Positions 4,073 to 6,073 of a stretch of DNA of 6,193 nt are shown in pieces; position 1 is the stretch's first letter, and every line of letters starts with the position of its first letter. The notes below the pieces were generated by a model. The model saw only the letters and a list, made by a program, of their open reading frames with translations, ran no database searches and was not told the DNA's origin. The stretch lies in the IMG/VR virus record IMGVR_UViG_2663762857_000022; one strand, written 5' to 3'. The position numbers and the translations under genes are program-made. This stretch comes from a virus (taxonomy: Monodnaviria; Loebvirae; Hofneiviricota; Faserviricetes; Tubulavirales).

Positions 4073-6073
4073 TCAGGGACAGTTATTGTCACAAGTCCAA
4101 GGGTCGGCTTCGCCGCCCCCACCCGCCGCGCGGGAGCGCGTCGTGCGGTGTCGTGAAGCCGACGAAATAAACACAGATTCATAGCTGCTGCCGCTTCTGA
4201 CTTCCTCTGCGCGGATTTTTTCTGCGGGGGTCATACGGCGGACAACACAGCCCATAAAACGGGTTATGACCGGAACAGGGCCAAACATGAAACCGGAAAT
4301 CACCGGTGCGCAGGGTTCACCGTAACGGTTAAAACGGGGTTTACCACCTTCCTGCGGCTGAACGTAAAAAGGACGAAGCAGACGTTCAGAACAGAAGAAA
4401 CCGCCGTTCAGCAGGATATAGGTCCGGAAATCGCCTGCATCACAGGCCATGCGGATGGCCTCCAGTTCGGCGACCTGCTGCGGCGTGAACTGCTGCATAT
4501 TGATATGATGTGCTTCAAGCGGTGAACGAAAAGTACGCATCTGGCGGTAAGCCGTGACGGACGGAACGCCAAAGAACTGGAACAGGCGAAGGCGCGTTGC
4601 TTTCTGCCAGCAGGCGGCACGGCTGACGGCATCACAGAATGAACGGGCAGAATAACGGTCATTCAGGGCGGTAATACCATCCGCACTGACATCACCCGCC
4701 ATTTTGGTGATGTACTTCACGATGTAACGGAAACCATCACCCTTTTCAGGGTCAATAGCCTCAATACAAATACGGTGCTCTTTCGCCCCCTTTTCATCCG
4801 GCTCATCGCGCATGGCCTCTTCACGGAAAATGGCCAGCACCGTTGCGCTCTCATGGGGATTGCAGTAAATCAGGAAATTCCAGTGCGTTGTACCGTCAGC
4901 ATGAGGCTCGACCGTACGCAGGCCGGGTATCTGAATACCGGCTTTATCCAGTCTGCGGCAGACCCGACGCCAGACGGTATTCAGCCAGGCGTGCGAATCC
5001 TTAACGGTCGGGCAACCTGCTTCCCACCATTTTTTATTCGGACGAGAATGCCATTTTCCGGCAACATTAAAACTGGTCGTCGGGTGAAAACGTGACGGCG
5101 TGGTGAGCACGATGAAGTAACCGGACAGCCCCATATCTTCGGACAGTTCACAGACGGCCTTTCCACGAACGCAGAGTTCAGCAATCCGGTTTTTCGGATT
5201 CGAAACAGAGGCGTTATGCGCATCTTCCAGCGTACAGATCAGCTCATTAAACGCATCAAAGACACCGGAGGACCGGAGATACTTTTTCACGCGTTTACTG
5301 CGGACAGCAAACAGGTCACGATGCCAGTCAGAAATATAAGGCGCGTTGCGGTTCAGTATGCCGAGCATGCGACAGACCTCATTGACCCGCTGGTCACGGA
5401 AAACCCGCAGGAAACGGGTGACAAAAGCCAAATCAGTCAGACGCTTAAGCAATCCCTCATCGCCGTAACGATCATGATAAGTGGCATAAACGGGGGCGAA
5501 ATCAAAGCCGGAGATGGCCTGAAAATAGGCCATCACATTGAGAAGGTGATGCTCTGGTACATCACTATAAATGGCCCGAGAAACAAGGCAGTCACGAACA
5601 ACCGAATCAGCCACCTCAGCAATCTGCTCATCAGTGCAGAAAAGCGAGAATTCATAAGGGTCTCCGTCCTGATTGAAGAAAGCAAAACGGTGAGCGGACT
5701 CAAGGGCCATCAGCGCATTTTTCACACCAAGCTGGTAAACCAGACGGCAGAACGCATGCGCTACGGTGAACGAAAACGAGCCAAACTGTGATACCAGTCC
5801 GGCAGCCCTGCCCCTGTCAGCGAGAGATAAATCCGTGCAGTTAATTCCGTAAATCACACGGTCAACCTGCGTGTTACGCGGCAATGCGAGCTGTGAAGAT
5901 AAGGTCCCGACCTCATCACGATACTGGCGGGAAAGCGTGGAAAGGTTGCGGGTGGCAACATCGCGCTCAGTCCGAAAATGCTCGCGTTCGGGCAGCGTCA
6001 GGCAGGGACGACCAAGGGCAACGGATGCCGCGTCGATGGCGTTATACGCTGTAAGGATGGCTGATTCGGTCAT
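4073..6073 (-). CDS. Rolling-circle replication initiator (Rep) endonuclease of the phiX174 gpA / P2 gpA-like superfamily
   Basis: 666 aa. ATG at 6073 with a purine-rich stretch (GAGAGA) about 10 nt upstream. Dual-tyrosine motif [11 protein letters not shown] (Y450-x-x-K-Y454-x-x-K), characteristic of two-tyrosine RCR initiators, and histidine-containing TTHWNFLIY upstream. The C-terminal ~45 residues are low complexity. Confidence 0.8.

Follow-up and report, generated by a model that had tools for sequence, protein, structure and literature searches.

A probable P2 A-type replication initiator and its predicted origin in an uncharacterised filamentous prophage of Escherichia coli

Results

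The 6,193 nucleotides of IMG/VR virus record IMGVR_UViG_2663762857_000022 (the whole stretch of DNA analysed here, called the window) carry a set of inovirus genes that all lie on the minus strand and are headed by rep (4073..6073), a gene for a 666-residue rolling-circle initiator with two tyrosines that belongs to the Phage_GPA family. Behind rep follow, in the same orientation, a gene for a 141-residue protein, small open reading frames (ORFs), and genes for coat-like, pIII-like, pVI-like and Zot/pI proteins. Very probably this Rep initiates the replication of a filamentous (inovirus) prophage of E. coli that is as yet uncharacterised, and is a homologue of protein A of phage P2 and of the phiX174 A protein. 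The rep ORF starts with an ATG at 6073 and ends with a TGA at 4075-4073, and in-frame stops 5′ of the ATG rule out a longer ORF. An identical coding sequence of 2001 nt is annotated by NCBI PGAP in E. coli strain 100416 (WP_032269437.1, ‘replication endonuclease’), and the 90%-identity protein cluster that includes Rep has 2063 members. All coordinates within rep given below refer to the minus strand.

The best and only significant Pfam match of Rep was PF05840, Phage_GPA (164.5 bits against a cutoff of 31.4, E 4.2e-48), which covers residues 207-457 and profile positions 73-316 of 321. The best PHROG was 91, ‘nicking at origin of replication’ (E 1.6e-127, residues 123-666). In the Pfam scan Rep had no match at E <= 0.1 to PF05144 (Phage_CRI), the family of the Ff pII proteins, or to PF02486 (Rep_trans), to which we take the canonical 359-residue RstA of CTX-phi to belong. 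The generic HUH-core model PF23343 (REP_ORF2-G2P) remained below threshold (E 0.017, 15.8 bits against a cutoff of 27.8), and an NCBIfam scan returned no model matching Rep. The PF05840 model was also matched by P2 A, phiX174 A, PM2 P12 and the Reps of fs2, Dolos and VCE232. These results bear out the original prediction, which had read the motif Y450-IVK-Y454-ITK in a 666-residue Rep as the mark of a phiX174 A / P2 A-type initiator unlike the pII-type Reps, and had proposed that a profile search against the GPA, pII and RstA families would tell these apart. The contrast between gpA and RstA turned out not to be a clean one, because PF05840 also includes the 709-residue ‘RstA-like’ proteins encoded by some CTX-type phages. 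In the CTX-type phages VCE232 (DQ288668) and pre-CTX (NC_073748) such a GPA-family protein is encoded together with a P2-type origin 2 nt past its stop codon, which would be a replacement of the replication module within the CTX lineage.

Alignment to P2 protein A, the second comparison that the original prediction had proposed, gave 28% identity over ∼400 residues of Rep (153-558; BLASTP E 3e-36), with homology extending from about residue 150 to about residue 610 and the tyrosines falling on the P2 pair. The conserved motifs of the family were all recognisable. Motif 1 (residues 320-330; 5084..5116) aligns with FITLTAPSKYH of P2 and conforms to the pattern u-T-L-T-x-P-S-[RK]-[FY]-H; none of T324, P326, S327 and H330 varies among 40 sequences. 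The metal-binding motif, motif 2 (residues 389-399; 4877..4909), reads EPH391ADGTTH397WN399 and is an H-U-N variant of the HUH motif, in which E389, P390, H391, D393 and H397 are invariant among the 40 aligned family members. Motif 3 holds the predicted catalytic tyrosine pair (Y450-IVK-Y454-ITK, residues 450-457; 4703..4726) and was placed by alignment to P2 A and phiX174 A. The YIVKYITK of Rep aligns residue for residue with the YIAKYISK of P2, so that the tyrosines stand at the identical positions 450 and 454 in both proteins, and Y450, Y454 and K457 are invariant in the same set. A second, bare YxxxY at Y199 of Rep is a chance occurrence. In P2 A, Y450 and Y454 are the two active-site tyrosines (Odegrip and Haggard-Ljungquist 2001, as cited in PMC3986222), and site-specific nicking with a 5′-phosphotyrosine intermediate has been established for P2 A and phiX174 A (Odegrip and Haggard-Ljungquist 2001; Liu and Haggard-Ljungquist 1994; both as cited in PMC3986222). 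The relationship to phiX174 A is distant: its Y343-VAK-Y347-VNK aligns with motif 3 of Rep, but a direct profile-to-sequence alignment was weak (E 0.068), and the link between the two proteins therefore rests on the shared Pfam model.

Past the tyrosines lies a conserved C-terminal domain (residues 458-612; 4238..4702) common to P2 A, PM2 P12 and the inovirus Reps, with W489, R510, G558 and G594 invariant and T604 nearly so. An AlphaFold2 model of Rep, calculated from 40 homologues (pLDDT, the predicted local distance difference test score, 88.9; predicted template modelling score, pTM, 0.86), places motif 1 on a strand of residues 317-323 and motif 2 on the β-hairpin formed by strands 384-390 and 396-404, with the two motifs on adjacent strands, while the tyrosine pair sits on a helix of residues 448-459 at the end of the PF05840 match. 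A metal motif on strands and tyrosines on a helix are the usual arrangement of HUH enzymes. The all-helical N-terminal region (residues 1-206; 5456..6073) lies outside the Pfam match and is poorly conserved beyond the enterobacterial clade described below. Helices were modelled over residues 2-236 with pLDDT above 88, the first ∼150 residues being clade-specific helices unrelated to P2 A. The C-terminal tail (residues 630-666; 4076..4186) is predicted to be disordered, with pLDDT below 50. A sequence search for solved structures found none for any relative of Rep. Among viral folds the model came closest to that of a Vibrio cholerae phage replication protein (E 2e-19) and next to those of microvirus initiators, and fold matches in the PDB, weak but specific, were the parvovirus Rep/NS1 nuclease domains, SIRV1 Rep and the Helraiser two-tyrosine HUH transposase.

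Selection on rep was estimated against an 88.7%-identical E. coli copy as the ratio of nonsynonymous to synonymous substitution rates (dN/dS), which was 0.12 overall. The catalytic core is under strong purifying selection (0.035) and the C-terminal domain gave 0.058; the value for the N-terminal region (residues 1-206) was higher than that of the core, at 0.16. In the C-terminal tail dN/dS was 0.31, and there the protein sequence is not conserved whereas a DNA element enclosed in its last codons is.

This element, CCTTGGACTTGTGACAATAACTGTC (4078..4102), is a 25-bp predicted plus-strand origin recognised by its homology to the nick region of P2. The P2 nick site is given as a GenBank feature inside gene A (NC_001895, position 29892), where the sequence spanning it reads GCC GCG CCT CGG AGT CCT GTC AAT AAC TGT; the last codons of rep in the window read GCC GAC CCT TGG ACT TGT GAC AAT AAC TGT CCC TGA. 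Over these 10 codons 23/30 bases are identical in the same register, and the P2 nick region is found at the corresponding point with respect to the protein core. A pattern built from the P2, window and annotated PM2 sites matched the window only once, at 4083-4101 on the minus strand, with 0.15 matches expected by chance. Among loci that had not contributed to the pattern, VCE232, Dolos, Salmonella, Providencia and a second E. coli locus gave one match each, at or just past the 3′ end of rep, and fs2 was matched with one mismatch. The aligned element, CCTTGGACT(T/C)GTG(A/T)CAATAACTGTC, is kept at the 3′ end of rep in inoviruses of E. coli, Salmonella, Providencia, Vibrio and Shewanella, and also in PM2. 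In Dolos and VCE232 it lies 2 nt past the stop codon, whereas in the window it lies inside the last codons of rep.

A relaxed core, TYGGAS-N7-AATAA, was then scanned in 80 further GPA-family loci from gamma- and beta-proteobacteria (547 kb). It occurred exactly once in 69 of the 80 loci, always on the rep strand and always where the conserved Rep core ends on its C-terminal side, and the opposite strand had no match in the 547 kb. In many of these loci rep itself stops at the TAA of AATAA, and in the long P2-like proteins the core lies 388-784 nt before the stop; P2 A runs ∼140 residues past its origin, unlike Rep, which ends right after it. Close relatives read the origin DNA in three different frames, as seen in rep of the window (4078-4102, minus strand), in E. 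coli JNE25-005 (L092:2270-2304) and in Salmonella (L008:11116-11140, where the protein ends ...ALDL). Because the identical DNA is read in three frames, and within a segment predicted to be disordered, the constraint acts on the DNA rather than on the protein. The window has the layout of a P2-type origin/initiator cassette, with the predicted origin in cis on the rep strand, where the conserved core of Rep reaches its C-terminal limit. Minus-strand positions 4078-4102 are most likely the origin of the window phage, judging from the conservation of these bases, and homology to P2 predicts a nick adjoining G4098 (a minus-strand base).

The original prediction had suggested looking for a nick site upstream of rep. 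That location was rejected: the origin pattern has no match in 6074-6193, a region that holds only a promoter-like site and a palindrome. That the P2 origin is conserved within gene A has already been noted for a Vibrio myovirus (PMC3986222), and none of the papers in the collection searched was found to extend this to filamentous phages. The origin of phiX174 also lies inside gene A, but its sequence, CAACTTGATATTAATAAC, has only CTTG and AATAAC in common with the element described here, at a different spacing, and homology between these origins is not claimed. Gene XII of PM2 (AF155037.1) contains two origin-like sites, at 1022-1040 and 2277-2300. The one near codon 146 is the annotated cleavage site; the one near codon 565 is the better match (CCTTGGAGCACTGAAAATAACTGT) and is syntenic with the nick site of P2.

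Motif 2 of Rep departs from the canonical HUH motif, two histidines around a hydrophobic residue, in reading H397-W-N399. Where P2 has H-W-H together with EPHH, Rep has H-W-N together with EPHA, and it carries a 5-residue insertion (KMAGD) after motif 3. Position 399 was compared between an enterobacterial inovirus clade of 23 Reps from E. coli, Salmonella, Morganella, Providencia and Xenorhabdus (41-99% identity) and 16 outgroups, which included P2, PM2, fs2, Dolos, VCE232, P2-like proteins of E. coli and Serratia, and others. Asparagine was found in 23/23 clade members and histidine in 16/16 outgroups. The first motif residues read EPH(A/K/R/V/N)DG in all 23 and EPH(H/Q)DG in 15 of the 16, and a KM(A/S)G insertion after motif 3 is likewise specific to the clade. 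Judged from its sequence, Rep is a motif variant inside the HUH family rather than a canonical HUH enzyme, and its homology to the family is unambiguous.

The gene directly 3′ of rep (3617..4042, minus strand), in the position of gene V, encodes 141 residues and matches PHROG 30648, a family of unknown function, over its full length (E 1e-95). Its match to Pfam Putative_G5P was weak and below the cutoff (E 0.081), and it had no match in the phage collection. A role in binding single-stranded DNA (ssDNA) is suggested by synteny, because rep of Dolos is followed by a gene annotated as a single-strand DNA-binding protein. Further along the minus strand are a major-coat-like protein identified by a PHROG match (3042-3302), a pIII-like protein with a Phage_Coat_A domain in Pfam (1704-2990), a pVI-like protein matching a PHROG (1345-1704) and Zot/pI, found by a profile match (279-1328). 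The pIII-like protein contains a Gly/Ser-rich repetitive linker (2078-2484), which produces several long ORFs that are spurious, some in other frames and some on the opposite strand. On the 5′ side of rep, a consensus scan found a promoter-like site, TTGACG-17-TAGCAT (6144..6172, minus strand), which is not above chance (1 found, 1.8 expected). Between it and the rep start lies a perfect palindrome, ACTGATAC-N6-GTATCAGT (6121..6142), whose position makes it a candidate operator for a small divergent ORF that lies just past the end of the window in the corresponding locus of strain 100416 (L001).

In strain 100416 the same phage, at 99% identity, is present as a tandem dimer beside hipBA (NZ_CM128593.1, L001:1-12200), with a unit of 8739 bp and origin copies 8739 bp apart. 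The unit also carries a GspD-like secretin and two small divergent ORFs, and has no integrase. Overall, rep DNA was found in 48 of 5426 complete E. coli genomes, in up to 11 places per genome, and Salmonella, Providencia and a further E. coli lineage have orthologues (41-58% identity) in the same inovirus synteny. The copy in the window is interrupted. Positions 1-368 (plus strand) are an internal fragment of argS, the gene for arginyl-tRNA synthetase (TIGR00456 positions 167-293), fused at 368/369 to the middle of zot/pI so that both genes are truncated. The argS part was matched in 5426/5426 complete E. coli genomes and the argS-zot junction in none; the junction reflects a genuine rearrangement or else a chimeric assembly.

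Discussion

P2-like myoviruses are the best-known carriers of the Phage_GPA family, and among the E. coli matches of Rep are many P2-like proteins of 829-840 residues (∼32% identity). Rep might accordingly be regarded as the remnant of a P2-like tailed prophage lying beside inovirus genes, rather than as the inovirus's own initiator. The genomic setting makes this extremely improbable. The rep gene adjoins the G5P-like, coat, pIII-like, pVI-like and Zot genes and runs in their direction, the tandem repeat of strain 100416 comprises the entire 8.7-kb unit with rep in it, and the orthologues at 41-58% identity from Salmonella, Providencia and E. coli keep that synteny. The nearest phage relatives of Rep are the inoviruses VFJ, fs2, Vaf1 and Dolos, and Rep lacks the long C-terminal extension that follows the origin in the P2-like proteins. 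The Helraiser fold match notwithstanding, there is hardly any likelihood that Rep is a two-tyrosine HUH transposase of the IS91/Helitron kind, or a relaxase, that mobilises the element instead of initiating its replication: the matching profiles are specifically PF05840 and PHROG 91, the origin element is homologous to a mapped replication nick site of P2, no helicase domain is present, and the gene order is that of a canonical inovirus replication module.

More can be said for the view that Rep is catalytically dead or degenerating through loss of the second histidine in both the H-W-H and the EPHH motif, and that the prophage depends on a helper. The second histidine of EPHHDG, like that at position 399, is retained by nearly all outgroups (15/16 and 16/16, respectively), and the prophage copy in the window is truncated. 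This too is improbable, since the substitution is fixed in all 23 clade members, which span five genera and 41-99% identity; in addition, the core evolves at a dN/dS of 0.035, the cognate origin is strictly conserved, and the element is multicopy in some genomes. On the strength of this fixation, of the purifying selection on the core and of the retained cognate origin, H-W-N is read here as a functional HUN variant rather than as decay. Asparagine can ligate Mg or Mn, and HUQ variants of the HUH motif are active in circovirus Reps.

Some points nevertheless weigh against Rep being a working initiator of this prophage. An asparagine at the second HUH position could in principle impair metal binding; the position of the P2 nick, from which that of Rep is predicted, comes from a GenBank feature; a search found no experimental work on the Rep protein or its phage; and the prophage copy in the window is unable to make virions by itself because zot is truncated and fused to argS.

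If Rep is the initiator, homology to P2 A and phiX174 A predicts how nicking, covalent attachment and tyrosine alternation would proceed and where exactly the nick would fall. Rep would bind the double-stranded replicative form and nick the coding (viral plus) strand within the 25-bp origin in its own last codons, next to G4098 in CCTTG/GACTTGTGACAATAAC, one tyrosine of the Y450/Y454 pair becoming covalently joined to the 5′ end. Host helicase and polymerase would extend the 3′-OH around the circle and displace the strand, after which the second tyrosine would cut the regenerated origin and the first linkage would be resolved, releasing a circular single strand. The released strand would be handled by the gene-V-like protein encoded downstream and by the Zot/pI machinery. 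The metal site would be built from E389/H391 and H397 together with N399, which takes the place of the second HUH histidine across the enterobacterial clade. For CTX-phi, ssDNA is reported to be made from tandem prophages between two origins, and the tandem arrangement in strain 100416 would permit ssDNA production of the same kind.

The best matches of Rep in the phage collection were inoviruses, namely fs2 (orf716), VFJ (orf698) and Vaf1 of Vibrio, Dolos of Shewanella and VCE232/pre-CTX (E 1e-47 to 3e-54, 29-33% identity). Their annotated GPA-type Reps measure 698-716 residues, fall into the same Pfam family (scanned for fs2, Dolos and VCE232) and the same size class, and head an inovirus gene set in the same way. 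The Vibrio and Shewanella proteins differ from Rep in having the canonical H-x-H in motif 2 and are only ∼30% identical to it, but they share the origin element at or just past the 3′ end of rep. A gpA-type Rep in an inovirus is therefore not unusual, and the present one is a new, uncharacterised case of a type already known. The gene II protein of the Ff phages (M13/f1/fd) has the same role and gene position as Rep and acts by rolling-circle nicking at the plus-strand origin, but it belongs to PF05144, which Rep does not match. The Ff origin is intergenic; that predicted for Rep lies in the 3′ end of rep instead.

The original prediction also inferred that replication modules had been exchanged between phage lineages. 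Exchange is supported, because this Rep family is common to P2 (a myovirus), PM2 (a corticovirus), phiX174 (a microvirus) and several inovirus genera; the same origin sequence accompanies it in P2, PM2 and the inoviruses, while phiX174 shares Rep only. P2 itself is a myovirus and the element that carries Rep an inovirus. As a novelty the claim does not stand, since such exchange is already established: replication modules have been described as frequently exchanged (PMC6813254, PMC7307601), and a common gene II/V module occurs in otherwise unrelated enterobacterial filamentous phages (Shapiro and Putonti 2020, PMC7307601).

For the most part, then, the present results confirm a known picture, in which rolling-circle initiators are swapped among ssDNA and small double-stranded DNA phages and the P2 A type is already present in several filamentous phages. 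What they add is the assignment of the origin and the HUN variant; the initiator itself is already annotated automatically in public genomes. Uncharacterised filamentous prophages of E. coli, Salmonella, Providencia and Xenorhabdus, some of them multicopy in human-derived E. coli isolates, thereby gain a predicted replication mechanism and a concrete 25-bp candidate origin. Since the P2 origin sequence is common to three virus morphotypes and keeps a fixed place relative to the Rep core, it is usable for automatic origin annotation. We suggest, tentatively and with slightly more doubt than confidence, that the Reps of enterobacterial inoviruses make up a ‘HUN’ clade of HUH endonucleases that occurs in nature and is functional, in which the second ligand histidine and the extra histidine of EPHH were replaced long ago, and that Rep and its origin, universally conserved and readable in any frame, constitute a compact, portable cassette of myo-, cortico- and inoviruses. 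If so, the metal site of the clade would be re-wired around E389, H391, H397 and N399, possibly with another metal preference or another balance of nicking and joining. Through its clade-wide change from HUH to HUN, the group offers a natural experiment on how HUH enzymes, a class exploited for DNA-protein conjugation tags, coordinate their metal.

Ypf-phi, CUS-1 and UP-phi901 are enterobacterial inovirus prophages that also occur in tandem repeats, and their genes II and V have been swapped between otherwise unrelated phages (PMC7307601, PMC4266046). They integrate at dif. Beside the phage of strain 100416 no dif-like sequence within 3 mismatches was found in 17.8 kb, and integration by dif/XerCD was dropped as an explanation. 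None of the matches of rep at 60-100% nucleotide identity in the E. coli genomes was assignable to CUS-1. In Salmonella and E. coli relatives of the phage, a gene for an IS110-family (DEDD) insertion-sequence transposase lies directly upstream of rep (L008:6648-7631 and L010:7919-8872, respectively), and this transposase may be the integrase of those prophages.

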